Positions 20,575-56,853 of a stretch of DNA of 64,000 nt are shown here, one piece after another. Position numbers and translations under genes: made by a program. Where the stretch lies: contig CAZTJN010000001.1 of the NCBI GenBank assembly GCA_964613955.1, positions 97,656-161,655 on the forward strand. The letters are read 5' to 3'. This stretch comes from an uncultured archaeon. GTDB taxonomy: Archaea; Aenigmatarchaeota; Aenigmatarchaeia; QMZP01; QMZT01. Numbering within the stretch: position 1 is the stretch's first letter; each line of letters begins with the position of its first letter. The notes under the pieces are model-generated. The model did no database searches, was not told where the DNA came from, and saw nothing but the letters and a program-made list of their open reading frames with translations.

Positions 20575-21906
20575 TCAAATCCTCAAAACAGTTTTCAGGA
20601 GGGTGAAGAACATTTCATAGTCACCCTTCCGGAAAAGGGTTTGCGTGTTTAAAACATAATTTAGGTAGTAGTATGCAAACTTCAAGTCGATATCAGGGAT
20701 CCTTGAAAAATTATGGTTTTTTGAAAAATTAAATTCTATCCATCCCTCTGTTGAACCGGGCAGGTGGAAGCCATTCCTTAGTACGAAATTGTACAAAGCG
20801 GTTCCGGGATATGGCTGATAAAATCCAGCGTAAAGCACACTTTTCAGTCTCTTTGCCAGTTTAAGTGTTTTGGAAAGGTCCCCCCTTGTTTCCGTCGGGA
20901 TGTCAATCATGAAGGAGGCAACAGACCTCAGGCCTATCTTGTTGCAGAAATCAAAAATATCAACAATTTGTTCAGTGTTCGTTCTTTTGTTTAGGAAGTC
21001 TAGCATCCTCTGCGAGCCTGATTCCACTCCGAAAAATATGTATTCGCAACCGTTTTCTTTGAAGGTTTTGAGCATTTTCTTATTCGCATCGGTAACCCTC
21101 AGTTGACACCCCCATCTCACGTCATGTGTTTTGAAAAGGTGTGACAGCTTTATTGCCCTCCTCATATCAGTCCCGACAAAGTTATCTTCATAATCAACTT
21201 TCAAGGCCTCGATTTTTGGGTAAGAAGATAGGAGATTCTCCAGATTTTCTCTCACCCTTCCCAAAGAATATGCCCTCCAACCTTCGCGGTAAAAAACCTT
21301 ATTGTAGCAGAAGTTACAGTTGTACGGACATCCGCGGGAAGTCGGCAAGGCCATTGTCTTCAAACCACCAATCCACCTGAAAGCATAATCATTGATATTA
21401 ATAATGTCCCAAGGTATGGGAGGCAGAGAATCCAGTTTTTTAATTGGGCTTTCTGAAATGTTGGATATTATTTTCCCGTTTTTCTTGAAAATAACCCCCT
21501 TTACCTTCTTGGGATTTTTCAGATTCTTTAGCAGGTCATTAAAGGCAATGTCCCCTTCCCCGACAACAACAAAATCTACATAATCCTCCTTTATTACCTG
21601 ATAAGGGAGGAGGGAGGGGTGAACACCACCCCAAACCACTTTCGCTTGTGTATTTTCCTTTGAGAATTTCGAAATCTCAACACAGGATTTTAACGATTTT
21701 CCGGTCCAGCTGGTAAGTCCCATTACATCAGGGTCGGTTTTTTTTATTATTTTTTTTGCTGTTTCTACCGATATTTTATTGCAATCCAAGATCTCAACAT
21801 CGTTGCCTTCTTTGTACGGCAGCGCCGCTATCTGCATGAGCCCCAGAGGTATAGATGGGACTTTACCGGGAAATTTTGTTTCCGGGTTTACGAGCAATAT
21901 TTTCAT
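20575..21906 (-). CDS. B12-binding domain radical SAM protein (class B)
   Basis: N-terminal Rossmann-like B12-binding region 'MKILLVNPE...LGLMQIAALPYKEGNDVEILD...DVMGLTS', then 'TSRGCPYNCNFCYN', the CxxxCxxC motif. 443 aa. Confidence 0.85.
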   Translation of the reverse strand: MKILLVNPETKFPGKVPSIPLGLMQIAALPYKEGNDVEILDCNKISVETAKKIIKKTDPDVMGLTSWTGKSLKSCVEISKFSKENTQAKVVWGGVHPSLLPYQVIKEDYVDFVVVGEGDIAFNDLLKNLKNPKKVKGVIFKKNGKIISNISESPIKKLDSLPPIPWDIININDYAFRWIGGLKTMALPTSRGCPYNCNFCYNKVFYREGWRAYSLGRVRENLENLLSSYPKIEALKVDYEDNFVGTDMRRAIKLSHLFKTHDVRWGCQLRVTDANKKMLKTFKENGCEYIFFGVESGSQRMLDFLNKRTNTEQIVDIFDFCNKIGLRSVASFMIDIPTETRGDLSKTLKLAKRLKSVLYAGFYQPYPGTALYNFVLRNGFHLPGSTEGWIEFNFSKNHNFSRIPDIDLKFAYYYLNYVLNTQTLFRKGDYEMFFTLLKTVLRI

Positions 21907-22966
21907 TTTTCCTCCTGAGTACGGAGTCGAAAACTATGTTTAATTCTTCCTGGCAGTTCCATACACATTCTTTGCAGTTCAGTAAGTTCAAACGTAAAGT
22001 TTCATATAACTCTGAATACCAGAAATCCTTGATATTGAGGTTGTGGATATTTCCTATTTTCTTCCCAAGTTCAAACATACCAAAGCAGGGATAAATATCC
22101 CCATTCGAATCTATTACCACTGTTAAAAATCCAGCCCCGCATGCCCTTGACCTTTCTCCTTTGAGAATAAATTTTTTAATTGTTTCCAGGTATTTTTCAG
22201 TGTTGTCTATAATTCCCTTCTCCCTCTCTATGTTTACTATCTTGTTCACTATTTCCTCGAGTTTGTTTTTTTGACATTCAGAGAAAGAGAGGGACTTCTT
22301 CATGTTAAAATTGTGCACCGGTATGAAACCTATATTTTTAATCCCGAGATTACTCAAGAAGTTCACGGTTTCTAGCAGCCTATCCAAGGTTTGGGGGGAT
22401 AATAAAATATTCACGGTTATCCTTGTTTTGTTGTTGGAAACATTTAACAAATTTTTGATTCCTAGAACCGCTTTGTCGTGCGCACCTTTTATTCCCCTCA
22501 ACCTATCGAAAATTTCAGGATCATCAGAATCCAGCGAAACCGATATTGTATCAACACCAATTTCAGTTATTTTTTTTGCCACAGAATTTGTTATTAATGT
22601 TCCGTTGGTGGATATATCCAAAAACATACCTTTGCCTTTTACGTAATTCATAATTTCGAACACGTCCTCCCTCATGAGCGGCTCTCCTCCTGATATGGAT
22701 ATAGTTGTAACACCAAGTTTTTCGAGATCATTAACCAACCTGAATATTTCTTCTTTTGACATTTCGTTGTTTTTGTATTTCCATAAATTGCACATTTCGC
22801 ACCTCAGATTGCATCTTCTGGTGAGAATCAAGATCGCAAGCAAAGGCGGATGTTTTATTTTCCAGTCCCTGAGAGAAAAATAGGTGCGTATAAAATTAAG
22901 GGATTGTTTAAATCCCTTTGTGCTTAAAAAATTTTTCCGTGCATAAGCTTTGTATTTTTCCCTCAT
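21863..22966 (-). CDS. Radical SAM protein with SPASM/twitch-like C-terminal domain
   Basis: 'LTRRCNLRCEMCNLW'. C-terminal 'CGAGFLTVVIDSNGDIYPC...CKECVWNC'. Overlaps the downstream B12-rSAM gene by 44 bp. Confidence 0.8.
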   Translation of the reverse strand: MREKYKAYARKNFLSTKGFKQSLNFIRTYFSLRDWKIKHPPLLAILILTRRCNLRCEMCNLWKYKNNEMSKEEIFRLVNDLEKLGVTTISISGGEPLMREDVFEIMNYVKGKGMFLDISTNGTLITNSVAKKITEIGVDTISVSLDSDDPEIFDRLRGIKGAHDKAVLGIKNLLNVSNNKTRITVNILLSPQTLDRLLETVNFLSNLGIKNIGFIPVHNFNMKKSLSFSECQKNKLEEIVNKIVNIEREKGIIDNTEKYLETIKKFILKGERSRACGAGFLTVVIDSNGDIYPCFGMFELGKKIGNIHNLNIKDFWYSELYETLRLNLLNCKECVWNCQEELNIVFDSVLRRKNENIARKPGNKISR

Positions 22967-23103
22967 TCAAAGACCTTTTAAAATAGTGGAAGTGAATTTT
23001 AAATAAAGAACTCCACCAGTCTTTGAATGGTGGATGATAGAAATCATATTCAAGGGCGTGACCTAGAAATCATACACCATCATGCTACCGGAGAATGTAA
23101 AAA

Positions 23104-23124
23104 GACGCATGCTTGACATGCGTC
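23104..23124. other. Hairpin-forming inverted repeat GACGCATG-cttga-CATGCGTC in an unusually long (315 bp) intra-cluster spacer
   Basis: 8-bp perfect arms with a 5-nt loop. Nearby are the 'CACCAgtctttgaaTGGTG' stem and a duplicated GGTGCTT. It lies 3' of the GT-C gene 23282-24844 on the minus strand. Confidence 0.3.
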
Positions 23125-23281
23125 ACCCCATAATCTGACCGGTGCTTGTTGGCAAAACTGGTGCTTTATTTTCCGAACATTTCCAGAGATAAAAGCATCG
23201 CCTTTTCCAAATGATATCTTCAGTGGGTTTTCGATATTTTCCGATTTGCCCATCTTGTAAATTTATTCTATAAATTTTATT

Positions 23282-24844
23282 TTAATCCACGATTTTGTAG
23301 AGACGGGTACACCCTTTCTCTTCAACAAGTGCGAGCGTATGATTCTTTTTCAGCTGATCGAAAATCAGTCTCCCGTATCCGAAAAACGTGGTATCGCACA
23401 TAGTATGGTTTACGTACAGGTAGTATTTCCCTCCCTTGTTTCTGCATCCTGAAAAAGAGGAAGTTAGATGTTTATCAGGCAACAATATTTTCATAACCAT
23501 TTCTGGGGAAGACATGCAATAATTTGACTGGGAGCTCTCGAAAAGCAAACAATCGTTATCCTTCACATAACTTCCGAAATGGATTATATTATCAATAAGA
23601 CAGTCGTCTTTTTCGAAGACGAAAACGTTCGTGCTTGAATGAAACAGTAATAATATTAAAATCAATACCACGAAAACGCCTGTAGTTCTAACCATATGCG
23701 GTATCCTGAAGGGAAATCTATTCTCCACAGTTCGCTCAACCAAATCCTTTGCTTTGAAAATACCGTAGCCCATCAGGATCGCCAGTGCTGGCTGCAGTGT
23801 TAGCTGATATAACTGCGGGTTGGTGTAAAGTGTTGCCCAGTACAGACCGTAAAAAAGAAAAAAGAATGCCACCCACGAAAACAGGAATATGAGACTGCGT
23901 TCTTTTGATACAAAAAGAAGAGAAAACAAAAGAAAGGCATAGAGAATGGTGGGATAAACATAGGGTTTTGCCAAATTTGAAGAAAGATGATATTGAACGT
24001 TTGGTATTAAGTACCCCAAGGAAAATGTTACAGGCCGTTCCTCATAATGAGGGTCTCTTGCCGGACCATAGATATTATCACCTATAATGTAATAGTAGCT
24101 GACAGGTATCATGAAAATCAAGAATATAAGCAAAGGGATTTTCAATTTTTTAATCTGGAATTTCTTCCTGTTTAAAATGAAATCCATAATGAACAAAGGT
24201 ATGAATATGGAATTGTCTGTTCTTACGTGGAGAGAAAACACGAGGAGCAGTAGGAAGAGAAGGTAAAGACCCCTCTTTCCTGCCTTAATCGAAATGAAAT
24301 ACATGAGAAATGTTAGCATGATAAAAAAGACGGACGTTACCTCGCTTGCATTGAGTTTTGCAAGGATAACAGACATGGGAAAAAGAGAGTATATCAAGGA
24401 GGAAAACAAAGCCACATAGTCCCTCTTGAAAAGAATATATGCGAGAAGAAAAATCATCAAAATAGTTAGCGAGCTCAGGAGCAGGTTAAGATAGAGAATG
24501 ACATTGTAGTTTGAACCAAACAAAAAGAAACCCGCTGCCATCAGTAAAGAATACCCTTTGGGGTGCCAGAAATCCTCCACAATCTGGTTTTCCAGCATAT
24601 TTACAGATGTTTTCACATAACTCCAGCAAAGCCCGTTGGGCGAGCTACATCCTGGGGAAGTGAATCTCAAATACGAACCCAAAAGAAAAATTAAAATGAA
24701 TGCCACCCAGACATGTATTTTTATTTTTCTGAAAAAAGAGGCAATATTTCTTATGTTGGCCAAAATCAATACACAAATCAAAACAAAGTTAATAAGTAAT
24801 ATGTAAAGTAAACTGCCGGAAAGGAAAGACTGAAAATCAAACAT
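23282..24844 (-). CDS. GT-C fold membrane glycosyltransferase, PMT/ArnT-like (GT39/GT83 family), paralog group A
   Basis: 520 aa. N-terminal polytopic domain (10 or more TM helices) plus C-terminal soluble domain ending '...LYKIVD'. The TM2 region 'KIKIHVWVAFILIFLLGSYLRF' is shared with five other paralogs. Confidence 0.6.
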   Translation of the reverse strand: MFDFQSFLSGSLLYILLINFVLICVLILANIRNIASFFRKIKIHVWVAFILIFLLGSYLRFTSPGCSSPNGLCWSYVKTSVNMLENQIVEDFWHPKGYSLLMAAGFFLFGSNYNVILYLNLLLSSLTILMIFLLAYILFKRDYVALFSSLIYSLFPMSVILAKLNASEVTSVFFIMLTFLMYFISIKAGKRGLYLLFLLLLVFSLHVRTDNSIFIPLFIMDFILNRKKFQIKKLKIPLLIFLIFMIPVSYYYIIGDNIYGPARDPHYEERPVTFSLGYLIPNVQYHLSSNLAKPYVYPTILYAFLLFSLLFVSKERSLIFLFSWVAFFFLFYGLYWATLYTNPQLYQLTLQPALAILMGYGIFKAKDLVERTVENRFPFRIPHMVRTTGVFVVLILILLLFHSSTNVFVFEKDDCLIDNIIHFGSYVKDNDCLLFESSQSNYCMSSPEMVMKILLPDKHLTSSFSGCRNKGGKYYLYVNHTMCDTTFFGYGRLIFDQLKKNHTLALVEEKGCTRLYKIVD

Positions 24845-24884
24845 CCAGACACCACTATTGTTTTAGCGTCTCAGAAATTAAAAG

Positions 24885-25313: not shown

Positions 25314-25427
25314 ATTTTACTCTCCATATGTTTTATAATTTCGCAGAATTGATTTTATATAATCTGAATTTGAACGAATTACTTTCGATAACGTTTGGTT
25401 TAAATTCCGAATATTTTTCAGGCAGAT

Positions 25428-26022
25428 TTATTTCAAATTCTCTGAAAGTTTCGAGCTCGAACTTCTCGTGCATTTCTTCACACAGATATAAGAAAAGAGA
25501 CTCAATAACGCGAAAAATACAGATGTTGTGTTAGATTCAATACTATTTGAAAGTAATATGTGCAGACGAAACAGAGCAAGCAAAAGAGCAGAGTAAAGAC
25601 CTGTCTCCTCTTTTTCAAAAAGAAGGCAGGCAACAAGGAAGATTATGATAACAGAAACAGCACCAAAAAACATTCACAGAGTAAAACACACCAATACTTG
25701 ACCCGAAAATCAAAAAGATAACCGAGAGCAGGAATGGATAAGAAATAGATTTCTCAATGGCCAAGTGGATATCACCCTGCAGCATACCTCTTGCAGCTTT
25801 CCCGCAGCCGTACTAATCATGAACCGTGAAGAAAATGTTTGGGAACATCTCCATGAGAAGAAGGGACAGGGCAACGATTACGATAAGTATAACCCATGTA
25901 GATTTTCTTATTTTTGACAGCTGTTTTCCTATATCTTTAATGTTAAAAATAAACAAAACAATTAGTAATGAAAAACAAACCGATAGCAATAAGACGTAAA
26001 AATGCGAAAGCTACTCAAACAT
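25428..26022 (-). pseudogene. Decayed 5' remnant of a GT-C paralog (group A) with in-frame stops and internal deletions
   Basis: Minus-strand translation from the ATG at 26022 gives 'MFE*LSHFYVLLLSVCFSLLIVLFIFNIKDIGKQLSKIRKSTWVILIVIVALSLLLMEMFPNIFFTVHD*Y...YPFLLSVIFLIFG', continuing in ORF 25428-25673 as '...EETGLYSALLLALF...TTSVFFALLSLFSYI'. These align with intact paralogs, for example 39193: 'LNLKDIKNQFHKIDKKVWAFLLVIFLFGFSL...YPFLIMLSYSIFG...KREEIGLYSAILYAM...SVSVFFIALAVLAYL'. There are TAG stops at codons 4 and about 66, and roughly two-thirds of the gene is missing. Confidence 0.55.
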
Positions 26023-26063
26023 CCAATAAGTTTTTGGATTTGAATTTTAAAAAATGTTACCCT

Positions 26064-27413
26064 TTAGGATGTAATGAATCTCAGGGCATGGAATCCTCTT
26101 TTAATATCTCCAAACGATCTAATTTTTTTGAACTGATCTAAAATGTAACTACCCCTTAAATAATATCTTTTGTATACCTCTCTCTGAATTTTTATCAACT
26201 CATCTTGCGTAAACATGCAAATTTCTTTTGGTCCTTTTCTATACATTTCAGATCCCGGGTATATAATTATTGGATTAAACTGTACGTAGTCCGGTTTTAG
26301 CATTTTCATTAGCCTGAAACTTTTTTCTACAGAGTCCTTCGTTTCTCCCGGGGACCCTATAATTACGTATGATAAAATTCTTATACCTGCCTTTTTGGTT
26401 AACTCAAAAGCCTTTTTAGTTTCTTCAAGTTTCACCTGCTTTTTCATTTTGTCCAGTATCTTCTGGTCCCCGCTTTCGACACCATACGCTATTACTGAAC
26501 ATCCAGCAGTCTTCATTTTCTCCAGCAAAATTTTATCAACCATATCAACCCTTGTTGCACATATCCACTTGATGTCCATTTTTTCCCTTGTTATGAGATC
26601 ACATATCTTCATCGTTCTTTTCCGGTTCAATGTGAAGTTGTCATCATAAAAGACAATGTTCTTGGTTTTTTGCATATCCACAACTTCCCTCAACTCCTCG
26701 AAAACATTTTCAACGCTTCTTTCCCTGTAGGGGCCGTAGACCCTTCTGGAACAATACACACAATTGTATGGGCACCCTCTCGTGGTGAGAAACGTTGTCA
26801 TGGGTCTGTCTATCAGAATGTGACCGTAAATTTTTGTTTCCAAGAGTTCTCTGGACGGGAAACTTATAGAATCGAGGTTGTTTGTATAGCATGGCTTGTT
26901 TATGTGTGTCTTCTTGTTAAATTTTAAACACAAACCCATCGTGTTTTTCAGATTTCTTTCATTTCCAAAACTTTCAACCAAATTCCTGAAAACAATTTCC
27001 TGGTCCCCTCTTATGATAAAGTCCACATATCTGAGGGCGCGCTCTGGAAATGTGCTTGCAAACGGACCGCCAGCAGCCGTAACAGCATTCAGACCTATCG
27101 ATTTCATTTTTGCTGAAAATAGCCTTATCCAGTTTTCCAAGTCACCCATCACAAAATCGCAGTAGTTGTTTGGTATAATTCCGATAATATCAGGCTTGCT
27201 TTCATATATTTTTTTCAGACATTCTTCGATCCCCATCTCTTTTGCATAGCAGTCCATTATTTCGACATCGGCCAGACCTTTTAGTGATGAAGCGATGTAG
27301 GCCAAATTCAGGGGAGGTGTCACGAACAATGTCTTGTAACCATCCAGCCTGCCGAATCCGGGGTTTACCAAACAGACTTTAATTCTATCACCTTGTATAT
27401 CAAAACCGAACAT
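26064..27413 (-). CDS. B12-binding domain radical SAM protein (class B)
   Basis: 'IKVCLVNPGFGRL...LAYIASSLKGLADVEIMD...DIIGI', then 'TTRGCPYNCVYCSRR'. 449 aa. Confidence 0.85.
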   Translation of the reverse strand: MFGFDIQGDRIKVCLVNPGFGRLDGYKTLFVTPPLNLAYIASSLKGLADVEIMDCYAKEMGIEECLKKIYESKPDIIGIIPNNYCDFVMGDLENWIRLFSAKMKSIGLNAVTAAGGPFASTFPERALRYVDFIIRGDQEIVFRNLVESFGNERNLKNTMGLCLKFNKKTHINKPCYTNNLDSISFPSRELLETKIYGHILIDRPMTTFLTTRGCPYNCVYCSRRVYGPYRERSVENVFEELREVVDMQKTKNIVFYDDNFTLNRKRTMKICDLITREKMDIKWICATRVDMVDKILLEKMKTAGCSVIAYGVESGDQKILDKMKKQVKLEETKKAFELTKKAGIRILSYVIIGSPGETKDSVEKSFRLMKMLKPDYVQFNPIIIYPGSEMYRKGPKEICMFTQDELIKIQREVYKRYYLRGSYILDQFKKIRSFGDIKRGFHALRFITS

Positions 27414-27460
27414 AGAAATTTATGAGAATTAAACTTAAAAACCGAAATTGAAGAATGCTA

Positions 27461-27488: not shown

Positions 27489-28187
27489 ATGATAACCCCG
27501 CAGATTTCTTTTGTTCTCCCCGTGTTTAATGAGGAAATGAACATCACGGGTGCTGTTGAGGATATTGTATCAGCGTCAGCTTCCTTGGGTCTGGGAAGAT
27601 ATGAAATAATCATTGTCAATGACGGCAGCACGGACAGCACAAAAAGGATTTTGAATTCTTTGCGCAAAAAAATAAAGATGCTGAGAATCATAAATTTTGA
27701 AAAAAACAGGGGCTATGCAGACGCCCTGAAAGAGGGATTCAAAGCTGCTAAGTACCTGCTTGTCTTTTACACTGATGCAGACAGGCAGTGCGACATAAAG
27801 GAACTGGGCTCCCTTCTCGACGCTATGGAGAAATACAAATGCGATTGCATTTTCGGTTACAGAAAAGAAAGGAAAGATTCATTATACAGAATTCTGGCTA
27901 CATGGGTGTTCAACGTACTTGCAAGAAAAATGTTCGATCTAGATTTAAGGGACATAAATTGTCCGTTCAAACTTTTCAAAAAAAGAGTGCTCGATAATAT
28001 TCAAATAAAATCAAAGGGGTTTTTGGTAGATCTGGAATTGGCCACGAAGGTAAAGCACTGCGGATTCATTATAAAACAAGTTCCGGTGACACACCGCAAG
28101 AGATATTCCGGGAAATCAAAGGTCAAGTTCAGAACTATATTTAAAACATTCTTTGGTTTATTAAAATTGAGAAAATATGAAATTTAG
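27489..28187 (+). CDS. GT2 glycosyltransferase, polyprenyl-phosphate sugar synthase-like (Dpm1/ArnC-like, soluble)
   Basis: 'ISFVLPVFNEEMNI...EIIIVNDGSTDSTKRIL...FYTDADRQCD' are the GT-A DxD motifs. 232 aa. Confidence 0.85.
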   Translation: MITPQISFVLPVFNEEMNITGAVEDIVSASASLGLGRYEIIIVNDGSTDSTKRILNSLRKKIKMLRIINFEKNRGYADALKEGFKAAKYLLVFYTDADRQCDIKELGSLLDAMEKYKCDCIFGYRKERKDSLYRILATWVFNVLARKMFDLDLRDINCPFKLFKKRVLDNIQIKSKGFLVDLELATKVKHCGFIIKQVPVTHRKRYSGKSKVKFRTIFKTFFGLLKLRKYEI

Positions 28188-30859: not shown

Positions 30860-30867
30860 ATAAGTTT

Positions 30868-34633: not shown

Positions 34634-34636
34634 AAT

Positions 34637-36602: not shown

Positions 36603-36603
36603 T

Positions 36604-39156: not shown

Positions 39157-39192
39157 GTTTCTATTTTAAATATCTTAAATAAAAGTTTTGAT

Positions 39193-42271: not shown

Positions 42272-42287
42272 ATGTGTTTTTTAAATA

Positions 42288-48339: not shown

Positions 48340-49142
48340 TTTCCTCCCAAGCGCAAATATAAATTGAAGGGGATCACATGGAAGACAACGGCGTTAATTC
48401 TGAACAGAACTGCAACCATGAAACCAAATAAAACAGGGTATCCTAAAAGATAGAAGAACAGGACCGAGTATGCCTCCAGCAAACCTCCCGCATTCTTAAA
48501 ATAGGGAACGAAATACAGAAGGCTCGATGAAGCCAAGAATATGATAATTACCGGAATATCCAGGAAAAGATTCGCTGCATAAAACACAAAAAGTGTTCTG
48601 GGAAACTCCAGAAAGTACCTGAAAAAGCATAGGGATGCATAACCCCCTAATTTCCTAGATAGAATATTTCTATGTTTTACAACCACCATCAAAACGTACA
48701 CAGTTTCGAACACCAAAATCCAAAGAAAGAAATTCCATTCTTTCACGAAAAACAAGGATACCAAAATCAAAAAGGGTATGGAAACCATGTCGGAAATATT
48801 TATTATTTTCAAAGTTTTCTCAGCTTTTTCAATCTTTAATTTTTCGGTCAGGTATTTTTTTGCTTCCCCTCCCACCACATCTAGATACACAAATTTCAAA
48901 ATAACCCTCACGCCTCTTCTTGGATTTCCCTTTAAAATAAAGGGGGCGTAGGGGAAAAGAAACGAGAGTGCTGCAACGTATCCGGCCACACCAGAGATAA
49001 CGAAATAAAACAAATTTATTCCGAAAAATAAAACAGCAATCTCATCAAAAATCCCAGCTCCATAAAAAGCAAAAAACAGCATGCACAAAATCAAGAATAA
49101 AAGGATCGAGTATTTGTACTTTGCTAAATTGTTTGGGGCCAT
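48336..49142 (-). CDS. Polytopic membrane protein, possibly flippase-like (UPF0104-like)
   Basis: 268 aa with about 8 TM helices. 'PYFKNAGGLLEAYSVLFFYLLG' resembles the UPF0104 P..gGlG..E signature. Confidence 0.45.
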   Translation of the reverse strand: MAPNNLAKYKYSILLFLILCMLFFAFYGAGIFDEIAVLFFGINLFYFVISGVAGYVAALSFLFPYAPFILKGNPRRGVRVILKFVYLDVVGGEAKKYLTEKLKIEKAEKTLKIINISDMVSIPFLILVSLFFVKEWNFFLWILVFETVYVLMVVVKHRNILSRKLGGYASLCFFRYFLEFPRTLFVFYAANLFLDIPVIIIFLASSSLLYFVPYFKNAGGLLEAYSVLFFYLLGYPVLFGFMVAVLFRINAVVFHVIPFNLYLRLGGK

Positions 49143-49321
49143 CTTATCAAGATTATATTGCTAGATTAGATTTATTAAACATCTGGATAACAAATTTTTA
49201 TGATATATGAGAGGATACTCGTAACCTTCTTGGTCTGTGTACAACTTCAAGGTACGAAGCAGGCTTAAGATTTATCCTATACAGAGGTTATTTTTTTTAA
49301 ACCTATTGATAAATTATTAAC

Positions 49322-50242
49322 ATGAAAATGAGAAGAAACCCCTTTTTGATTATTTTGGTATGCGCCATTTTTTTGCTAATTCCTTCTCTTGTTGCCGGAG
49401 CATGCCCCAAGGATGACACGTACATAAACTCCAGTACTGTTCTCTCTGGAGGTTTCTGCAAGATCGAAGACAAAAATGAAGACGGTGTACTTATAATAAT
49501 TTCTTCCAACATCGTTCTTGATTGTAACAATACTTTATTTGACGGAGGTGTATCAAAAGCAGGATATACGGTAACCGTCCCCTGCGATATGGGAATAAGA
49601 AATATCACGATCAAAAACTGCCGTGCTGTTAACTATTTCCGCGGGGCTAATATATGTGGTCTTAAAGAAAGCTCAATTTATGGAAATATATTCACCAATA
49701 TGTCTTTAAGTGGTATCGGTATGCCCTATGGTTGCAGTAATAACAAGATAACGAAAAATATTTTGGAATACAACGCAAATGAAGGAATAAGTTTTTACGG
49801 GTCAGAGTACAATACCATATCGGAAAATGTAATAAAGTATAATGGTAACGGCATAGTAATTAAAGGTGGGAATGGATGGGGTTGCCACCACAACATTATA
49901 AAGGAAAACGAAATCGAGAACAATAGGAACAATGGAATATTATATGACAGTTGTAAACATGGCATTATTTCAGGAAACATTATAAAAAATAACTCAGGAT
50001 ACGGAATACTTTTCGTAGGCGATGCAGAAGCAGACGACACAACAGGCAATGAATTCTCATCCAATGAAAAAGGGGATACCGGATTTGGAAAAACAATTGA
50101 AACTGCTTCAGGAGGGGGTATTTCTGGATTCTTTATTTGGAGTCAGGGCATTCCGGCTGCTATATTCATTATCGTGTTAATTTTAGCTTTTGTTATTATA
50201 AAAATTATTTTGCCAAAGTACAGAATTCAGAGTAAACGTTAA
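49322..50242 (+). CDS. Secreted right-handed beta-helix (PbH1/NosD-like) protein with C-terminal TM anchor
   Basis: Signal 'MKMRRNPFLIILVCAIFLLIPSLVAGA'. Repeats 'NITIKNCRAVNYFRGANICGLKESSIYGNIFTNMSLSGIGM...NEGISFYGSEYNTISENVIKYNGNGIVI'. C-terminal 'IPAAIFIIVLILAFVIIKIILPKYRIQSKR'. Confidence 0.7.
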   Translation: MKMRRNPFLIILVCAIFLLIPSLVAGACPKDDTYINSSTVLSGGFCKIEDKNEDGVLIIISSNIVLDCNNTLFDGGVSKAGYTVTVPCDMGIRNITIKNCRAVNYFRGANICGLKESSIYGNIFTNMSLSGIGMPYGCSNNKITKNILEYNANEGISFYGSEYNTISENVIKYNGNGIVIKGGNGWGCHHNIIKENEIENNRNNGILYDSCKHGIISGNIIKNNSGYGILFVGDAEADDTTGNEFSSNEKGDTGFGKTIETASGGGISGFFIWSQGIPAAIFIIVLILAFVIIKIILPKYRIQSKR

Positions 50243-50349: not shown

Positions 50350-51267
50350 ATGATGTATGTAGTAACAGGCGGTTCTGGCTATATAGGACGTCAGCTCGTC
50401 AAAGATATTCTGAATAAAGGCGGAAGGGCAATAAACATAGACAAGAAAGAACCTCTTGAACCCGTCAAAGGAGAAAGGTTTATCAAGTGCGACCTAACGG
50501 ACAAAAGGAAAGCAAGAGAAACCATAAAATCCCTTGAGCCCGAAGGAGAATACGTTGTGATACATCTTGCTGGTTTGTTCGAGAAGGACGTAAGAAAAAG
50601 GAAACACTGGAAATTCGAGGATTTTCTTTCCATGAACGCCACCACAACAAAGAACCTAGTGGATGGACTGAACGAACAAACTTTCGACATCAAATCATTC
50701 ATCTTTTCCTCTGCCGCCTTGGTTAACTGCTTGGGAAAAATAAATGATTTTTACCCGCGTTCGAAGCTAAAGGCCGAAGAATTTATCAGGAAAAATCCGC
50801 CTTCTGCCTCCACCCACATACTCAGGGTCAGCAGGGTCATAGGAGGGCTTGACAACGGGAAAGTCTCGAAGGACATCGTAAGCGACTTCATAAAAAAATT
50901 CCTCTCCGAAGATGAAATTGTTTTCAAGGGCTCGAACATAAGGAGGGATTACATCCATTTGAATGACGTATGCAGGGTGATTCTCTCCCAGATGGAAAAT
51001 GGCCTGCATATAAAGAATGTTTATTCTTCAGAACAGGTGCAGATGAGAATAATAATTGAGATGATTCATGAGGCATTGCTGAAGAGAGGGCTTATCCAAA
51101 AGAAACGAAAAATCACCTTTCAGGAAGATATTGACAATCCTCTACCCCAGATAGAGGGCAGAAGCGATTTTTCCGGCATTCTTGAATGCAAGACCTCTGA
51201 AGATGTTGTAAAAAGGACGATAGATGAATATATCGAAGCCATGAAGAAAAACATCCCTTTCAAATAG
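50350..51267 (+). CDS. NAD(P)-dependent epimerase/dehydratase-family protein (extended SDR)
   Basis: 'MMYVVTGGSGYIGRQLVKDIL' Rossmann motif. Catalytic 'YPRSKLKAE' YxxxK. 305 aa. Confidence 0.7.
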   Translation: MMYVVTGGSGYIGRQLVKDILNKGGRAINIDKKEPLEPVKGERFIKCDLTDKRKARETIKSLEPEGEYVVIHLAGLFEKDVRKRKHWKFEDFLSMNATTTKNLVDGLNEQTFDIKSFIFSSAALVNCLGKINDFYPRSKLKAEEFIRKNPPSASTHILRVSRVIGGLDNGKVSKDIVSDFIKKFLSEDEIVFKGSNIRRDYIHLNDVCRVILSQMENGLHIKNVYSSEQVQMRIIIEMIHEALLKRGLIQKKRKITFQEDIDNPLPQIEGRSDFSGILECKTSEDVVKRTIDEYIEAMKKNIPFK

Positions 51268-51301
51268 TTTTATTTAAAATTTCCCTTTCAAATTAAAACT
51301 A

Positions 51302-52609
51302 ATGAGCAGGATTGTTGTTCTGGGAGGAGGTATCGCGGGTCTTTCCACTGCCTATTTCCTTGCGAAAGCCGGCATGAAACCAATCGTCTTGGAGAAGGAG
51401 AAGGAAGCGGGCGGTCTCGGATTCTGTCACAGTGTCGGCGATATGTTTATAGACAGCGGATATCACATCATTTTCAAAGGTGACGAGTATCTCCTGAATC
51501 TTTTGAGGGAGCTGAATTTAGAGAAAGATATTGTATGGGGAGACCTTGATTTTAAACTGGTCACCAAGAAAGGAGATATATTTTTCTCCCCGCTTAAAAT
51601 ATTATCAAGCATATGCCTCTCTTTATCCGAAAAAAAGTTCCTTGCGAAAATTTACTTCAAAATGAAAAACACAAAGGACTGGAAATCCCTCGACAAATTC
51701 ACAGCGAAAGAGTGGATAATAAAAAACAGCAGCGGTGATGTATACAAAGATATATTCGAGCCGATAATAAAGGCAAAATGGGGAAGGGATTCGGACAAAG
51801 CTTCTGCCGCATGGTTCTACGGTAGGCTTAAACCGCGTTCTAAATCCAGGAATATCTTCGGAGGAGGGGAAAAGGCAGGATACCTCAAAGGCTCTTTCAA
51901 AAATCTTTTTTCCGTTCTTGAAAGAGAAATAAAAGGTAGGGGAGGGGAAATAATAACATCAGCGAAGCCCACGAGGATATCCATAAAAAACAAGAAAGTC
52001 GTGTCAGTCAAGTATCGTATAAACAAAAACCTGAAAGAAATGAGAACAGACACTCTAATCAGCACCATCCCTGTTGGAGAGCTTCTGAGGATTGCAAAAT
52101 TGCCTGAAGATTTTGAAAGACAGGCAAGAAAATTAAAATACAAAGCTGTGATATGCGCAGTATTCAGCCTGCGGAAAAAAGTGACGAATTCTTTCAGAAC
52201 GATATTTTCTGAAAGGAGGTCCTTCGGCGGTCTTGTCGAGCTCACGAATCTCATAGACAAAAAACATTTCGGCGGTAAACACATACTTTACGTTTTCAAT
52301 TTCCTCAATGCCGAAGAAAGTTTATGGAAATTAGGGGACAAAGAAATTATTGAAAGATACATGAACGATCTCGAAAGGCTCTACTCTAGTTTCAAGGAAC
52401 AGATAATCTGGTATAGATTATACAAAAATCAGTACGGGGAGCCCTTTTATCAAAAAGACTACCTTAACATAATGCCGGATACCAAAACACCTGTAAAGGG
52501 GTTATTCTTAACGGGCATGATACACTCTTATCCTGTTTCTGATTTCAACAACATAGTATCACTAGCCAGCAAAACAGCTGACTTGGTTTTAAGGGAGGTA
52601 AGATGTTGA
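51302..52609 (+). CDS. FAD/NAD(P)-binding oxidoreductase (amine-oxidase / phytoene-desaturase-like fold)
   Basis: 'MSRIVVLGGGIAGLSTAYFLAKAGMKPIVLEKEKEAGG' is the dinucleotide-binding GxGxxG...E motif. 435 aa. Confidence 0.7.
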   Translation: MSRIVVLGGGIAGLSTAYFLAKAGMKPIVLEKEKEAGGLGFCHSVGDMFIDSGYHIIFKGDEYLLNLLRELNLEKDIVWGDLDFKLVTKKGDIFFSPLKILSSICLSLSEKKFLAKIYFKMKNTKDWKSLDKFTAKEWIIKNSSGDVYKDIFEPIIKAKWGRDSDKASAAWFYGRLKPRSKSRNIFGGGEKAGYLKGSFKNLFSVLEREIKGRGGEIITSAKPTRISIKNKKVVSVKYRINKNLKEMRTDTLISTIPVGELLRIAKLPEDFERQARKLKYKAVICAVFSLRKKVTNSFRTIFSERRSFGGLVELTNLIDKKHFGGKHILYVFNFLNAEESLWKLGDKEIIERYMNDLERLYSSFKEQIIWYRLYKNQYGEPFYQKDYLNIMPDTKTPVKGLFLTGMIHSYPVSDFNNIVSLASKTADLVLREVRC

Positions 52610-53718
52610 GCAGAAAGACGGCCCTCTCTATTCTGAAGGGGGTGCTAACGAAGAAAACACCCATTTACGTGCAGTTCGCAGTCACAAAAAGATGCAATTT
52701 GAACTGCAGAATGTGTGGCATAGTGAAATCATGGAAAAACGAAAAGGATTTGGACCTGGATGACGTGGAAAGGGTAGCGGATATTCTCTACAAGCTGAAC
52801 ACAGGCATGGTGATATTTACTGGAGGGGAGCCCTTTTCAAGAGATGACCTCCCGGAGATTGTGAAAATCTTCCATGAAAAAGGCCTGAATACAAGGCTGC
52901 AGACAAACGGGACATTGTGTACAGAAGAGAATGTCAAGGAGGTGGTAAAATCCGGCCTCAATGATATTTCAATATCTTTGGATTCACTGAGCCCGAAAGT
53001 TCAGGACAGTATAACCAATATGAAGGGTTCATGGGAAAGAACAATAAATTCCATATCCTTGTTTTCCCGCATGATGCCCAAGAAAAATTCCATGCCTATT
53101 ATAAACTGCGTTCTTTCGAAAAAGAACATAGCGGAAATCGAAAAAATGGTAAAATTCGTAGATAAAATAGGATTCTATCTTTCCGTTATTCCCGTACATC
53201 TCTTGAAAGAGCGAAGCGAAAGATTCGCCTTCAGGGGTTATGAGAATTCGATGGGTTTTTCGGAAAGGGATTTTGATTTGATAGATCGGACATATTCGAA
53301 ACTCATAGAGATGAAAAGGAAAGGATTTTCCATATACAACTCCCTGAAGTTCCTGAGGGAGAGCCCCGGGTTCATTAAATATCAAATATGCAGATGGAAG
53401 TGTTATTCTCCGTATCTCTATTTCTCTATTTCGCCAAGCGGCCTGTTCTCCCCGTGCATAGATTTACGAACAGATATATCAATCTTGGATGACAGGTTCC
53501 TCGAAATTTATAGGTCAAAGGAATTTGAAAAGAGAATTTCAAGGCAGGTCAGCCAGTGTTCGGGATGCATGTACGGCTGCTGGCCGGAGATTACGTATCT
53601 CTGCGAAGATGTGAAGGTTTTTATAAAGAGGATTTCGGAAGGTCTGAAAATTCTTGGCAGGAAAAGGAAAGGCTTCGATTACGATAGCATTATAAAAATT
53701 ATCAATTCAATATCATAA
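52603..53718 (+). CDS. Radical SAM protein with SPASM/twitch-like C-terminal domain
   Basis: 'AVTKRCNLNCRMCGI'. C-terminal 'CRWKCYSPYLYFSISPSGLFSPC...CSGCMYGCW'. Overlaps the upstream gene by 7 bp and abuts the downstream GT-C gene. Confidence 0.8.
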   Translation: MLSRKTALSILKGVLTKKTPIYVQFAVTKRCNLNCRMCGIVKSWKNEKDLDLDDVERVADILYKLNTGMVIFTGGEPFSRDDLPEIVKIFHEKGLNTRLQTNGTLCTEENVKEVVKSGLNDISISLDSLSPKVQDSITNMKGSWERTINSISLFSRMMPKKNSMPIINCVLSKKNIAEIEKMVKFVDKIGFYLSVIPVHLLKERSERFAFRGYENSMGFSERDFDLIDRTYSKLIEMKRKGFSIYNSLKFLRESPGFIKYQICRWKCYSPYLYFSISPSGLFSPCIDLRTDISILDDRFLEIYRSKEFEKRISRQVSQCSGCMYGCWPEITYLCEDVKVFIKRISEGLKILGRKRKGFDYDSIIKIINSIS

Positions 53719-53719
53719 A

Positions 53720-55450
53720 ATGCTCGGACTTGTTTACAAATTTCTGGACCAGAATATCCTGATTTTCATGTCCATACACTTTGCACTTTTGCTGCTGTTT
53801 CTCGCGCTAAATTTCAAAACAATCGTGAAAGAATTTTCAAGAATAAACAGAAAGGCATGGGCAATATTGCTGGTGATATTCCTGGTTGGTTTTTTCCTAA
53901 TGAACGCCGAATACTGGTATGGAGAACATACGGACGCTTATGCTCCTCTAGAAACTGCCAAGTTTCTGGTTCTGGAGGGGAAAAACGTGAAGGCCTGCGC
54001 TGCAGGACGGGCTGGTTACTGTTCGTCATACCAGCAGGTTCTTCAGCCGGTTGGGTTCCCTTATCTGATATCAATTTTATATATGATCTTCGGGATAAAC
54101 ACGCTCCCTGTTTTGGTGTTTTCAGGTGTATTAAGCTCGCTTACCACAATTCTCGTATTTCTCATATGCTATCTGTTATTCAAAAAGGAAGAAGTTGGAT
54201 TATATGCATCCCTTGTTTATGCTTTGATACCCCTTAACATATTTTTCTCAGGAACAGGATTCACAAGGATCATTTCTTTGTTTTTTGTTGGCTGCACAAT
54301 CTTGGTTTACTTGGTCACTATAAAGAAAAATAATCTTCGTTTATGGATGCTCTTTGTGCTGTTCCTTTCTTTTTCCATTTACATAAGGCAGGAGAATTAC
54401 GTTCTCATCCCTTTGTTTGTCTTGGGGTTGTTTTTGTTCAGATATAATTTAAAAAACAGGGACAACATGAAAAAGCTTTTCATAGCCGCTGTGGTGTTCA
54501 TAATTTTCCAGTTACATGTATTTTACTGGACATTCTTCATAATTGCATATGCATTTGTCCACCCTGTTGGATTACCGACATACTCCCTTGCTTGTCTTTT
54601 TAAAGTGAGCCCTTACATTCTCAGTTTCATGCTGGGGTTCCCCTTCTACCATATATCCAATGCATACAATTTAGCAGCAAGTTCGCTGTTTATTATAGGA
54701 ATTGCCCTCATACCGGTTTCCCTTTTAATGAAAAAAGACCATGCCAAGGGGTCTTTGTTCACGGCTGTTTGGTTTGTTTTGTTTTTTGTTATTTACGGGT
54801 CCTATTGCATGAACTTCGTTAACGGGCTTTCCCGAGACCCGGATACAAGCTTTGTCAGGTATATAATTCAATTCCATGTTCCATATGCCATACTGGCAGG
54901 ATATGCATTTTATATGATAACTAAATTTGGTAAAAGGATAAGCAGGTACGCAAATTTTGTATTGGTTCCGATTTTCGTTATTCTTTTGCTTATGTCAATC
55001 CAGTTCCCAACAACCATGTTTAAGGATGCGAGGACAGATCATGACAGCAAGTATTTCTCAGCCATAAAGAGGACGCCTCCGAATTCGACCATTATAACAC
55101 AGATGTTCATGATGGTGTCATCAGATGTAGTTGGAGGAAATAGAAAGTATATATCTCCCGAAGTAATGGTTCTGCACGGAACACCTGAACACACGATTAA
55201 GTTGCTGCATGAAAGCAAAGATGTCTATTACATAGAGCTGGACTATTGTAAATACGACCCAGATCATAATCCATGCAAGTTCATAAGGGAAAATCTGGAC
55301 CTCGAGTTTGCTTTCAGGGAAGGCCCCCTGAATGTCTACAAAGTTTTAGTGAAACCTGATAAGGACTACATCATTGAGTGGATTCATTCCCTGTACAACG
55401 TTACCGTGAGATCAAACAAAATTGTAAATATGACTGTGAGTGAATTATGA
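53720..55450 (+). CDS. GT-C fold membrane glycosyltransferase, PMT/ArnT-like, paralog group A
   Basis: 576 aa. 'SRINRKAWAILLVIFLVGFFLM', 'KKEEVGLYASLVYALIPLNIFF', and C-terminal 'GPLNVYKVLVKP'. Confidence 0.6.
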   Translation: MLGLVYKFLDQNILIFMSIHFALLLLFLALNFKTIVKEFSRINRKAWAILLVIFLVGFFLMNAEYWYGEHTDAYAPLETAKFLVLEGKNVKACAAGRAGYCSSYQQVLQPVGFPYLISILYMIFGINTLPVLVFSGVLSSLTTILVFLICYLLFKKEEVGLYASLVYALIPLNIFFSGTGFTRIISLFFVGCTILVYLVTIKKNNLRLWMLFVLFLSFSIYIRQENYVLIPLFVLGLFLFRYNLKNRDNMKKLFIAAVVFIIFQLHVFYWTFFIIAYAFVHPVGLPTYSLACLFKVSPYILSFMLGFPFYHISNAYNLAASSLFIIGIALIPVSLLMKKDHAKGSLFTAVWFVLFFVIYGSYCMNFVNGLSRDPDTSFVRYIIQFHVPYAILAGYAFYMITKFGKRISRYANFVLVPIFVILLLMSIQFPTTMFKDARTDHDSKYFSAIKRTPPNSTIITQMFMMVSSDVVGGNRKYISPEVMVLHGTPEHTIKLLHESKDVYYIELDYCKYDPDHNPCKFIRENLDLEFAFREGPLNVYKVLVKPDKDYIIEWIHSLYNVTVRSNKIVNMTVSEL

Positions 55451-56853
55451 GGGTAATGCTGATAAGGTATCACAATATTGGTAACATAAATACAAGGTTA
55501 CCGGAGAGCATAAACAGAGTCCAAGGCGTATACCCGCCTCTGGGAATAGCATATGTGGCTTCCACTTTGGAGAAATTTGGCCACGATGTTCGCATTCTCG
55601 ACAGCAGGGCACTGAACTTAACGGCAGAGGAAACAAAGAAGCACATAGAAAAATTCAACCCAGATGTCGTCGGAATTACGTGCATGAGCTCCACCATAAA
55701 GGGTTCACTTGAAGCTGCGTATCTGACCAAACAAGTTTCGAATGGTATAGTAACCGTTATGGGAGGTCCTCAGGTATTCATATACCCCAAAGAAACGATA
55801 AATTACGATTTTGTGGATTTCGGCATTGCTGGAGAAGGGGAAATAATAATGCCCGAACTTTTGGAAGCATTGGATGGCAAGAAGAAACTTGGAGAAATAG
55901 ATGGGCTGGTTTACAAGAAGAACGGGATAAAGTTCAATCCTGCAAAAAGATATGTCAAGGATCTGGATTCTTTGCCATTCCCTGCAAGGCATCTCTTACC
56001 CAATTACAAGTATTTCTCGATACTTTCAGACCATCCTTTCACAACCCTTATAACATCGAGGGGTTGTCCGTTCAGGTGCGGTTACTGCTTCAGAAAAAAA
56101 CTGGACAGAATTGTAAGATACAGAAGCGCGAAAAATGTGGTTGATGAAATACAGTACTGCCTAGAGAAATGGAAATTCAGGGAAATCTGGTTTTACGATG
56201 ACACGTTTACGATGAACAAAAGACATGCCGCGCAAATATGCAAAGAAATAATAGACAGGGGACTGGATTTTAAATGGGAGGCCGTCACAAGGGTGGATTG
56301 CGTTAGCAGGGGGATGCTCAGATTGATGAAAAAGGCAGGTTGCAGAATGGTGAGATACGGGATTGAAAGCGGAGATCAGGAAACCCTCAATATCATGAAA
56401 AAGGGAATAACATTAGAGCAGGCAAAGAAGGCAACAAAATGGACAAGGGAAACAGGAATGGAAAGCTTTTGTTTTTTTATGATAGGTTATCCTAATGAAG
56501 ACGAGAAAAAAATAAAAAACACCATAGATTTCGCAAAAAACCTTAACATAGACTGGGCGATGTTTTCCAATGTCACCCCCTACCCTTCCACGGATTTGCT
56601 TGAACTCGCCTACGAGAAGGGTTTACTGAAAGACAGGGAATACTGGAGGAAATTCACACTCGGGAAAACGAATGAAAGAATACCATACGAATTTCCTGAT
56701 ATGGATAGGTGGGTGAAGAAGGCATATAAAAGTTTTTATCTGAGACCAGGATTTGCAGCAAAAACATTATTTAAAATAAAGAGTTTAAGACAGGTAAAAA
56801 AATACCTTTTAGGCTTGTATGCCATTTTGAATTTCAAAACGTTTAGCTCATGA
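55447..56853 (+). CDS. B12-binding domain radical SAM protein (class B)
   Basis: 'LGIAYVASTLEKFGHDVRILD...DVVGITC', then 'TSRGCPFRCGYCFRK'. 468 aa. Overlaps the upstream GT-C gene by 4 bp. Confidence 0.85.
   Translation: MRVMLIRYHNIGNINTRLPESINRVQGVYPPLGIAYVASTLEKFGHDVRILDSRALNLTAEETKKHIEKFNPDVVGITCMSSTIKGSLEAAYLTKQVSNGIVTVMGGPQVFIYPKETINYDFVDFGIAGEGEIIMPELLEALDGKKKLGEIDGLVYKKNGIKFNPAKRYVKDLDSLPFPARHLLPNYKYFSILSDHPFTTLITSRGCPFRCGYCFRKKLDRIVRYRSAKNVVDEIQYCLEKWKFREIWFYDDTFTMNKRHAAQICKEIIDRGLDFKWEAVTRVDCVSRGMLRLMKKAGCRMVRYGIESGDQETLNIMKKGITLEQAKKATKWTRETGMESFCFFMIGYPNEDEKKIKNTIDFAKNLNIDWAMFSNVTPYPSTDLLELAYEKGLLKDREYWRKFTLGKTNERIPYEFPDMDRWVKKAYKSFYLRPGFAAKTLFKIKSLRQVKKYLLGLYAILNFKTFSS

Follow-up and report, generated by a model that had tools for sequence, protein, structure and literature searches.

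Gene content of the locus

The locus described here is a 64-kb stretch of contig CAZTJN010000001.1 from an uncultured archaeon (the whole stretch is called the window, and its genes are named by their first coordinate in it), in which genes for five class B radical S-adenosylmethionine (SAM) enzymes, each with a B12-binding domain, lie among genes for GT-C membrane glycosyltransferases. The host is a DPANN archaeon, Aenigmarchaeota-like. An exact-protein lookup of the 55447 product gave no match, and the affiliation is taken from homologs; the 45774 product has a match at 100% identity on a 67-kb JGI contig, probably the source. By domain searches and gene layout, ~18.3 to 60 kb of the window is read as a hypervariable cell-surface glycosylation island, and GC content passes from ~0.47 in the upstream flank to ~0.36-0.40 across the island. 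Within ~45 kb there are 11 radical SAM genes, a density that far exceeds chance expectation: besides the five class B genes, which the first-pass annotation had recognised, the region holds four of SPASM type and two that are HxsC4-like. The interleaving of the class B genes with GT-C genes, also recognised then, is borne out by the layout (Table 1). Upstream, positions 1-17932 encode large surface proteins (NosD/beta-helix, CARDB, LamG), secreted or anchored, that bear signal peptides and reach 1739 aa; several carry N-x-S/T sequons at 3.8-4.6 per 100 aa. Given their sequons and signal peptides, these proteins are plausible glycan acceptors. The 64-kb window contains no STT3/AglB gene, no tRNA in a tRNA scan and no Rfam RNA in an RNA-family scan.

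Table 1. Features of the glycosylation island, in window coordinates
Feature	Coordinates	Strand	Evidence or remark
Class B radical SAM paralog 1	20575-21906	-	PF02310 61 bits, PF04055 65 bits; CPYNCNFC at residue 193; HpnJ 151 bits vs 577.6
Class B radical SAM paralog 2	26064-27413	-	PF02310 and PF04055; directly upstream of decayed GT-C
Class B radical SAM paralog 3	40889-42271	+	PF02310 and PF04055; same strand as GT-C 42288
Class B radical SAM paralog 4	45774-47201	-	PF02310 (marginal) and PF04055; operon with 10-transmembrane-segment protein and DUF362-ferredoxin
Class B radical SAM paralog 5	55447-56853	+	PF02310 and PF04055; overlaps GT-C 53720; large conserved orthogroup
GT-C (PMT_2), 10 transmembrane segments	23282-24844	-	PF13231 35.2 bits
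Decayed GT-C remnant	25345-26022	-	tblastn with GT-Cs of the window and of relative L173
GT-C-like, 11 transmembrane segments	28198-29880	+	PF13231 16.7 bits (below cut-off); blastp likeness to GT-Cs
GT-C (PMT_2)	32238-33884	-	subfamily shared with 42288
GT-C (PMT_2)	39193-40836	-	PF13231 52.5 bits
GT-C (PMT_2), partner of 40889	42288-43976	+	PF13231 38 bits; pair kept in L001
GT-C-like, 13 transmembrane segments	44011-45777	+	PF13231 18.3 bits (below cut-off); blastp likeness
GT-C (PMT_2), partner of 55447	53720-55450	+	PF13231 43.7 bits; pair kept in L001
GT-C (PMT_2/PMT), convergent with 55447	56857-58539	-	PF13231 54.3 bits, PF02366 33.4 bits
GT2, polyprenyl-phosphate sugar synthase-like	18312-19088	+	PF00535; NCBIfam best ArnC, PgfS, AglJ (below cut-off)
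GT2, polyprenyl-phosphate sugar synthase-like	27489-28187	+	NCBIfam best matches
GT2, polyprenyl-phosphate sugar synthase-like	33893-34633	-	NCBIfam best matches
GT2, two C-terminal transmembrane helices	35742-36602	+	AglJ / Dol-P-hexose transferase-like
Flippase-like membrane protein (LPG_synthase_TM)	38221-39156	-	PF03706 141.9 bits; TIGR00374 90.6 vs 43.2
SPASM radical SAM	19525-20571	+	domain and NCBIfam searches
SPASM radical SAM	21863-22966	-	immediately upstream of 20575
SPASM radical SAM	30721-31971	+	true start probably downstream of 30859
SPASM radical SAM with weak DUF3463 (HpnH-type C-terminus)	52603-53718	+	orthologs in L001 (75%) and L170 (40%)
DUF362 with two [4Fe-4S] ferredoxin	47194-48339	-	43% ortholog adjoins radical SAM gene in L171
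268-aa membrane protein, ~10 hydrophobic segments, no family match	48336-49142	-	44% ortholog adjoins radical SAM gene in L172
Nucleoside diphosphate (NDP)-sugar epimerase/dehydratase, short-chain dehydrogenase/reductase (SDR)	29918-30859	+	domain/NCBIfam searches
DegT/PseC-type sugar aminotransferase	34637-35710	+	domain/NCBIfam searches
SDR	50350-51267	+	first gene of conserved five-gene operon
FAD oxidoreductase, PRK07233	51302-52609	+	343.9 bits vs 252 cut-off; model named 'hypothetical protein'; next best HpnE
NodU/CmcH-type carbamoyltransferase	58542-60065	-	domain/NCBIfam searches

The five class B paralogs

All five open reading frames (ORFs) match both the B12-binding domain PF02310 (33.7-82.7 bits; cut-off 32.1) and the radical SAM domain PF04055 (65-102 bits; gathering score 29.5), and each holds exactly one CxxxCxxC motif, at residues 193-214, so that their first identification as B12-binding radical SAM enzymes stands. 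The motif is embedded in T(S/T)RGCP(Y/F)xCx(F/Y)C, and alignment of the five recovers this string and the N-terminal motifs quoted with it in the first-pass annotation, the shared elements being K(I/V)LL, PPLG, ILD, PD(I/V)xGI, GG(P)H and GEGE. Pairwise identity by blastp is 26-33%, which indicates ancient paralogs and excludes recent duplication. Hydrophobic-segment prediction places no transmembrane segment in any of them, which suggests that they are soluble and cytoplasmic. The AlphaFold model of 55447, the one paralog modelled, shows the class B two-domain fold (pLDDT 93.2, pTM 0.91); Foldseek relates it to MgmA/QCMT, TsrM, AprD4, OxsB, CysS and TokK at E 1e-16 to 4e-24, with TMq 0.60-0.68 to TokK, TsrM, OxsB, QCMT and CysS. 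This fold and the domains of all five confirm the class B architecture, from which neither cobalamin use nor methyltransferase chemistry follows.

Curated families do not point to methylation either. HpnJ (TIGR03471) is the top-scoring NCBIfam model for all five (147.8-209.2 bits against a cut-off of 577.6), while BchE (TIGR02026) gives 143.9-199.1 bits against 481.35, the HpnR model 93-127 against 650, the QCMT model 83-130 against 360 and the model of ladderane-lipid B12-binding radical SAM enzymes 91-164 against 360. The models for PhpK, KedN5, TsrM and the C-methylases of RiPPs (peptides that are made on ribosomes and modified after translation) all score far under their cut-offs, and those for ApyD, BzaD and AprD4 fall likewise well short. 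In a PDB sequence search AprD4 is closest (E 1e-23 to 2e-24, identity 19-21%), then QCMT (9CCB; PMC12931638), CysS, TsrM, OxsB and TokK; AprD4 acts as a dehydratase on sugar 1,2-diols and binds no cobalamin (PMC12931638). The C-methylation offered in the first-pass annotation is consequently a prior expectation only, since the non-methylases HpnJ and BchE give the best family scores and a cobalamin-free sugar dehydratase gives the best TM-score.

Contacts between radical SAM and GT-C genes

Eight intact GT-C genes and one remnant lie in the island. Six of the eight score above the PMT_2 cut-off and the other two, 28198 and 44011, resemble other GT-Cs by blastp; each of the eight is predicted to have 10-14 hydrophobic or transmembrane segments. 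They share 22-34% identity or cannot be aligned with one another by blastp, an alignment of the eight is too divergent for catalytic residues to be assigned confidently, and a PDB sequence search with 53720 returned zero matches. The remnant encodes GT-C residues ~1-117 in one frame, ~120-191 in another and then ~504-550, and the split frames and missing middle indicate that the gene has undergone a frameshift and has lost ~310 aa internally; the pseudogene reported beside 26064 is thus real.

Four of the five class B genes had been said to abut a GT-C gene or its pseudogene. This holds for three, the pairing of which is kept in relatives: 40889 and 42288, which share a strand, are 16 nt apart, 53720 and 55447, likewise on one strand, overlap by 4 nt, and 26064 sits 5' of the remnant on the minus strand. 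The fourth contact, between 44011 and 45774, is convergent only. The fifth gene, 20575, is the last of a minus-strand string that runs 26064, GT-C remnant, 24885, GT-C 23282, SPASM 21863, 20575. The notion of a repeated module has to be given up: there is no duplicated unit, neither the radical SAM nor the GT-C genes are close enough to one another for this, and each site has its own gene order.

Conservation in relatives

Eleven loci of relatives that carry orthologs of the radical SAM genes of the window were examined (designated by L numbers), and all 11 are glycan loci that hold glycosyltransferases. The link to genes of lipid-linked-sugar glycosylation is therefore conserved, and the outcome that the first-pass annotation had named as refuting, adjacency to GT-C genes in no relative, is not what the relatives show. 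L001, from a Candidatus Aenigmarchaeota metagenome-assembled genome (MAG) with a 55447 ortholog at 82% identity, has the order GT2, DegT, radical SAM (79% to 40889), GT-C (66% to 42288), SDR, FAD oxidoreductase, SPASM/DUF3463 radical SAM, GT-C (72% to 53720), radical SAM (82% to 55447), GT-C (62% to 56857) and carbamoyltransferase, so that the pairs 40889-42288 and 53720-55447 are both preserved and co-directional. Relative to this compact island, the blocks 35742-40836 and 44011-50242 are extra in the window. In L173 an 87% ortholog of 26064 is followed 45 bp on by an intact 551-aa PMT_2 gene, and in L174 a GT-C fragment comes after a 48% ortholog. In its flanks L173 matches the window at 86% DNA identity, whereas the GT-C slot reaches just 36-44% identity in protein, which marks the slot as hypervariable. 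Whole radical SAM/GT-C blocks have been gained and lost between close relatives of the island. At window 25314-26063 a 750-bp remnant stands where L173 has ~7.7 kb (1690-9517), encoding a GT-C, a DUF2079 membrane protein, a class B radical SAM enzyme, a SPASM radical SAM enzyme and a GT-C.

In the more distant relatives the partners change. The 45774 orthologs of L171 and L172, at 43-46% identity, do not retain GT-C 44011; instead, a DUF362-ferredoxin gene (4486-5586; 43% to 47194-48339) lies directly upstream of the radical SAM gene in L171, and an orphan with 10 transmembrane segments (6124-6963; 44% to 48336-49142) lies beside it in L172. DUF362 also occurs near the 55447 ortholog in L170. 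The class B gene of L171 forms a contiguous run with genes for a GT2 and a CE4 deacetylase, with no more than a few bases of gap or overlap between them, and a PMT_2 gene is two genes off. An ArnD-like reading of the deacetylases of L171 and L172 was downgraded, the best NCBIfam match being an XrtA-system polysaccharide deacetylase.

The 55447 orthogroup is far larger, with more than 120 clusters at at least 48% identity in archaea and bacteria (DPANN, Hermodarchaeota, Omnitrophota, Desulfobacterales and one Actinobacteria MAG among the named members); 45774 and 26064 belong to small ortholog groups. Every one of six further loci with 55447 orthologs (49-64% identity) has glycosyltransferases beside the radical SAM gene: GT2 in four, PMT_2, GT87 or an unclassified polytopic protein within 1-4 genes, and GT4. 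Partners that come up repeatedly are LPG_synthase_TM, DUF362, radical SAM-DUF3463, UbiA with a phosphatase, NTP-transferase-GT2 fusions, heptose-type sugar-nucleotide genes and additional class B paralogs. A UbiA prenyltransferase, a PHP or PGP-type phosphatase and a phosphoribosyltransferase adjoin the 55447 orthologs of L169 (7417-9529) and L003 (3675-4931); by analogy, this set resembles a polyprenyl-phosphoribose donor route like that of decaprenylphosphoryl arabinose (DPA) or GT136. In L005 (6350-9146), from a Desulfobacterales MAG, a run of nine very short ORFs, of 56-120 aa and without Pfam matches, lies downstream of the 55447 ortholog and a GT2 fusion; these ORFs could be peptides or a phage-like segment.

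Neighbourhoods in the wider clade

A wider sample was drawn from GTDB genomes and JGI metagenomes, comprising 164 loci of 27-46% relatives among the matches listed, with genes called crudely and labelled by phmmer and iterated hidden Markov models (HMMs). Among the matches listed, GT-C genes make up 14 of 352 immediate neighbours of class B genes as against 15 of 1070 genes farther away (odds ratio (OR) 2.9, p=0.007), and GT2 genes 32 of 352 as against 43 of 1070 (OR 2.4, p=0.0005), the enrichment falling with distance from the radical SAM gene. GT-C is enriched beside these enzymes, but outside close relatives GT2 outnumbers it as the immediate partner. Phmmer with the divergent GT-Cs of the window detected almost no GT-C neighbours and the iterated HMM detected more; Pfam confirmed PMT_2 in seven of 10 tested. 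A Pfam-confirmed PMT_2 gene directly abuts a class B gene in loci of the PVC group and Omnitrophota and on two metagenome contigs, and in an Anaerolineae locus PMT_2 is one gene away, with a SPASM radical SAM gene between. Two to seven class B paralogs share a locus in 58 of the 164 listed loci. Tandem arrays of 4-7 divergent class B paralogs occur in L018, L068, L020, L024, L040, L042 and L079 (bacterial and Bathyarchaeota), often with a GT2 or SPASM radical SAM gene at the edge.

Four alternatives to the reading favoured below were considered, in falling order of likelihood: tailoring of soluble NDP-sugars, modification of lipids or head groups, adjacency without meaning, and modification of peptides or proteins. 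The last two can be weighed on the neighbourhoods. It is possible that the genes merely co-reside in a rearranging glycan island and that the radical SAM enzymes serve unrelated steps, given that gene order varies at every site, that one contact is convergent, that large insertions and deletions separate the island from L001 and L173 and that pairing at the level of orthologs is lost at distance. However, this is very unlikely for three reasons: first, relatives retain three of the co-directional pairs, with identities of 48-87%; second, direct adjacency of class B and PMT_2 genes arose or persisted across several unrelated lineages; and third, neighbour enrichment drops with distance from the radical SAM gene.

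Peptides or proteins as substrates are more improbable still. The enzymes would then be RiPP-type C-methylases working with SPASM maturases, or QCMT-like, and would act on a small precursor or on surface proteins, for which the best Foldseek match by E-value (QCMT/MgmA), the weak matches of the SPASM enzymes to many peptide-maturase models and the run of tiny ORFs in L005 can be cited. Nevertheless, no credible small ORF that could encode a precursor peptide was found in any intergenic gap of the island, the peptide-maturase scores are all far under cut-off, and the neighbours across phyla are glycan genes and not proteases, transporters or leader-binding proteins.

Comparison with known systems

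The closest frame for the island is that of the three-component glycosylation systems (GtrA/B/C; ArnC/D/E/F/T; AglD/R/S; GT136; mycobacterial DPA with DprE1/E2), which combine a small polyprenyl-phosphate-sugar synthase of GT2 or UbiA type, a flippase, a GT-C that acts on the outside, and donor editors; the island has synthase-like GT2s, a flippase-like protein, GT-Cs and putative donor editors. None of these systems has been described with radical SAM enzymes, whereas the island has five of class B and four of SPASM type together with eight GT-Cs and four GT2s. A pentofuranose system of this kind consists of a polyprenyl-phosphoribose synthase, a MATE flippase and GT136 (Kelly et al. 2024, PMC11127046).

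Hopanoid side-chain genes offer a second comparison: HpnI, HpnK and HpnJ, with HpnH and HpnL, draw on the same set of families (GT2, B12-domain radical SAM, radical SAM-DUF3463, LPG_synthase_TM), and the GT2-deacetylase-class B operon of L171 parallels the order HpnI-K-J. Unlike that pathway, the island has no hopanoid genes, its host is an archaeon and its radical SAM enzymes, scoring far below 577.6 bits, are not HpnJ orthologs; moreover, the Hpn pathway has no GT-C, and a GT-C donor depends on its anomeric centre, which would be lost in a ring contraction. In GrsA/B, Gmm with Gms, Cds and Tes there are likewise archaeal clusters of B12-binding and SPASM radical SAM enzymes, and for Cds the proposed reaction is rearrangement of a lipid-linked glucose. 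By contrast, the island and its relatives stand in a glycosyltransferase context; sequence comparison with these systems is through the Tes model alone, for which scores are far below cut-off.

These likenesses raise the possibility that the class B enzymes modify membrane lipids or glycolipid head groups, after the models of GrsA/B, Gmm with Gms, Cds and HpnJ, and that the GT2s would make glycolipids. Archaeal clusters of B12-binding and SPASM radical SAM enzymes are known for modification of glycerol dialkyl glycerol tetraethers (PMC11214058), HpnJ is the top model, the set of radical SAM-DUF3463, GT2, B12-binding radical SAM and LPG_synthase_TM mirrors HpnH/I/J/L, and there are weak matches to the ladderane-lipid model. 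This scenario is distinctly unlikely, given that scores against both the HpnJ and the ladderane-lipid model are far under cut-off, that the 11 loci hold no recognisable lipid-synthesis gene save UbiA in two (L003, L169), and that the GT-C enzymes would be left without a role. DPANN archaea generally lack lipid synthesis, which also counts against it.

The C-methylases GenK, GenD1, Fms7 and MoeK5, and AprD4, share with the five paralogs the Rossmann plus radical SAM architecture and radical attack on unactivated sugar carbons, and MoeK5 acts in a lipid-linked phosphoglycolipid pathway. These enzymes of antibiotic pathways differ in their low identity to the paralogs (19-21%), in serving secondary metabolism, in acting mostly on soluble pseudo-oligosaccharides and in that none is coupled to a GT-C. 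Among the homologs listed for 55447, 45774 and 26064, no source name points to the clades of GenK, GenD1, Fom3, MoeK5, GrsA, GrsB, Gmm or Cds. A search of the full-text literature found no description of a GT-C/polyprenyl-sugar glycosylation system equipped with radical SAM enzymes, in agreement with the first-pass annotation, and no such system is listed in the reviews that cover class B enzymes or lipid-modifying radical SAM enzymes. In summary, the backbone is of a known kind and the radical SAM complement is new.

A proposed role in donor tailoring

GT-C enzymes take polyprenyl-phosphate-linked donors. Given GT2s that resemble donor synthases, a flippase-like protein and the GT-Cs, the backbone of the island looks like several three-component extracytoplasmic pathways. 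The best NCBIfam matches of the four GT2s are ArnC, AglJ, PpgS, PgfS and Dol-P-hexose transferase, all below equivalog cut-offs, and one of the four has the typical C-terminal transmembrane pair; the flippase-like gene is present in a single copy in an island with several putative pathways. It is suggested that the class B enzymes serve several of these GT2/flippase/GT-C pathways as auxiliaries that tailor the sugar donors by radical chemistry, which is on balance their probable role. Donor tailoring is proposed since these soluble enzymes are coupled to GT-C, GT2 and deacetylase genes and score best against HpnJ.

In such a pathway a small GT2 would load a sugar onto polyprenyl (dolichyl) phosphate at the cytoplasmic face, the flippase-like protein would carry the lipid-linked sugar across the membrane and a PMT_2-type GT-C would pass it to a surface acceptor, likely the sequon-rich giant proteins encoded upstream. 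All five class B enzymes would be cytoplasmic, each editing one donor at an unactivated carbon before flipping, and the same would probably hold for the four SPASM enzymes; the stage favoured for this editing is the polyprenyl-phosphate-linked sugar. The anomeric phosphate would stay intact throughout; given that a GT-C donor requires it, C-methylation, epimerisation or deoxygenation would fit the GT-C-coupled paralogs better than ring contraction of the HpnJ or Cds type. The DUF362-ferredoxin is a candidate for a dedicated reductant, or electron donor, because its adjacency to the 45774-type enzyme is conserved. Editing at the lipid-linked stage has precedents in ArnD and DprE1/E2. Auxiliary enzymes are known to diversify lipid-linked donors in three-component systems, epimerases being documented (PMC11127046), and HpnJ and Cds are radical SAM enzymes that are proposed to act on lipid-linked sugars, in the case of HpnJ by rearrangement of an amino sugar (PMC13459092).

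The likeliest of the alternatives, although still unlikely, places the radical SAM enzymes ahead of the GT2 step, where they would tailor nucleotide sugars (or sugar phosphates) in solution, so that the link with GT-C would reflect a shared glycan pathway only. The substrates of GenK, GenD1, AprD4, DesII and BtrN are soluble sugars; AprD4, the top PDB match in sequence and by TM-score, acts on the soluble pseudodisaccharide paromamine; SDRs, DegT, NTP-transferase fusions and heptose-pathway genes share the loci; and the radical SAM enzymes lack membrane segments. However, the tight co-directional coupling (the 4-nt overlap and the 16-nt gap) is with GT-Cs and not with NDP-sugar enzymes, the radical SAM gene of L171 is coupled to a GT2 and a deacetylase, and the top-scoring family, HpnJ, is proposed to act on a lipid-linked sugar (PMC13459092).

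Several observations weigh against tailoring of lipid-linked donors by cobalamin-dependent enzymes that are matched to particular GT-Cs. With respect to the enzymes, all five fall below every curated NCBIfam cut-off, so that family membership assigns them no reaction type; the B12 domain of 45774 is marginal (33.7 against 32.1 bits for PF02310); the highest TM-score of the 55447 model, 0.70-0.73, is to AprD4, which is cobalamin-free; and GenK, AprD4 and similar sugar-acting relatives use soluble substrates, so that the NDP-sugar stage is possible. With respect to the pairing, the 4-nt overlap between 44011(+) and 45774(-) involves their 3' ends, and these convergent genes do not form an operon; pairing of a given radical SAM enzyme with a given GT-C at the level of orthologs is lost beyond close relatives; direct GT-C adjacency is a minority feature of the wider sample (~10 of the 164 listed loci), though it occurs in unrelated lineages; GT-C enrichment falls to OR 2.3 (p=0.06) once L001 is left out of these 164; and several GT-C-like neighbours in relatives were detected by the iterated HMM and not confirmed by Pfam. 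Domain identities, gene arrangement and its conservation in relatives are observed; the proposed substrate, stage of modification, reaction type, cobalamin use and acceptor are deduced from them.

A bolder formulation is possible, with a somewhat less than even prospect of being right: class B enzymes may constitute a fourth component of three-component glycosylation, which edits polyprenyl-phosphate monosaccharides by radical chemistry (C-methylation or other) at the cytoplasmic face for installation by dedicated GT-Cs, and which may be widespread in DPANN, Omnitrophota, the PVC group and other uncultured lineages, in arrays of up to seven.

Other genes of the island and its flank

Genes 50350-56853(+) form a conserved operon that corresponds to L001 4903-11407 and encodes an SDR, an FAD oxidoreductase, a SPASM/DUF3463 radical SAM enzyme, a GT-C and a class B enzyme; the oxidase/reductase pair beside a GT-C recalls, by analogy, lipid-linked sugar editing of the DprE1/E2 type. 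The longest ORF of the SPASM gene 30721-31971 overlaps the SDR gene 29918-30859 by 139 nt, and since the radical SAM domain begins at residue 83 an internal ATG is probably the real start.

A further GT-C candidate, 36604-38238(+), was rejected, having no transmembrane segment, Pfam match or PDB match. It encodes a soluble 544-aa orphan, also without an NCBIfam match, and its start overlaps the end of the membrane-anchored GT2 gene; a homolog (265 bits) lies at L018 2132-3742, in an unrelated bacterial MAG, beside a GT2 and seven class B genes. Adjoining the island at window 60318-63649, a gene for a DUF483 protein is followed by the two small HxsC4-like radical SAM genes (309 and 321 aa). This second repeated radical SAM set is extended in L001 (14888-21407), which has three genes for DUF483 proteins and four or five of the small radical SAM genes.

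Significance

Class B radical SAM enzymes are among the largest pools of enzymes with unassigned function, and their connection with lipid-linked-sugar glycosylation supplies a definite class of substrates that can be tested. Given that members of the 55447 orthogroup are ~50% identical across archaea and bacteria, the reaction of this group is likely to be strongly constrained. The cell surface mediates host attachment in DPANN and other ultra-small or episymbiotic microbes and is essentially uncharacterised; donor tailoring by these enzymes predicts that it carries new sugar chemistry, in the form of C-branched, deoxygenated or epimerised residues. If this is true, three-component glycosylation would gain a radical tailoring step, which would be useful for glycoengineering.

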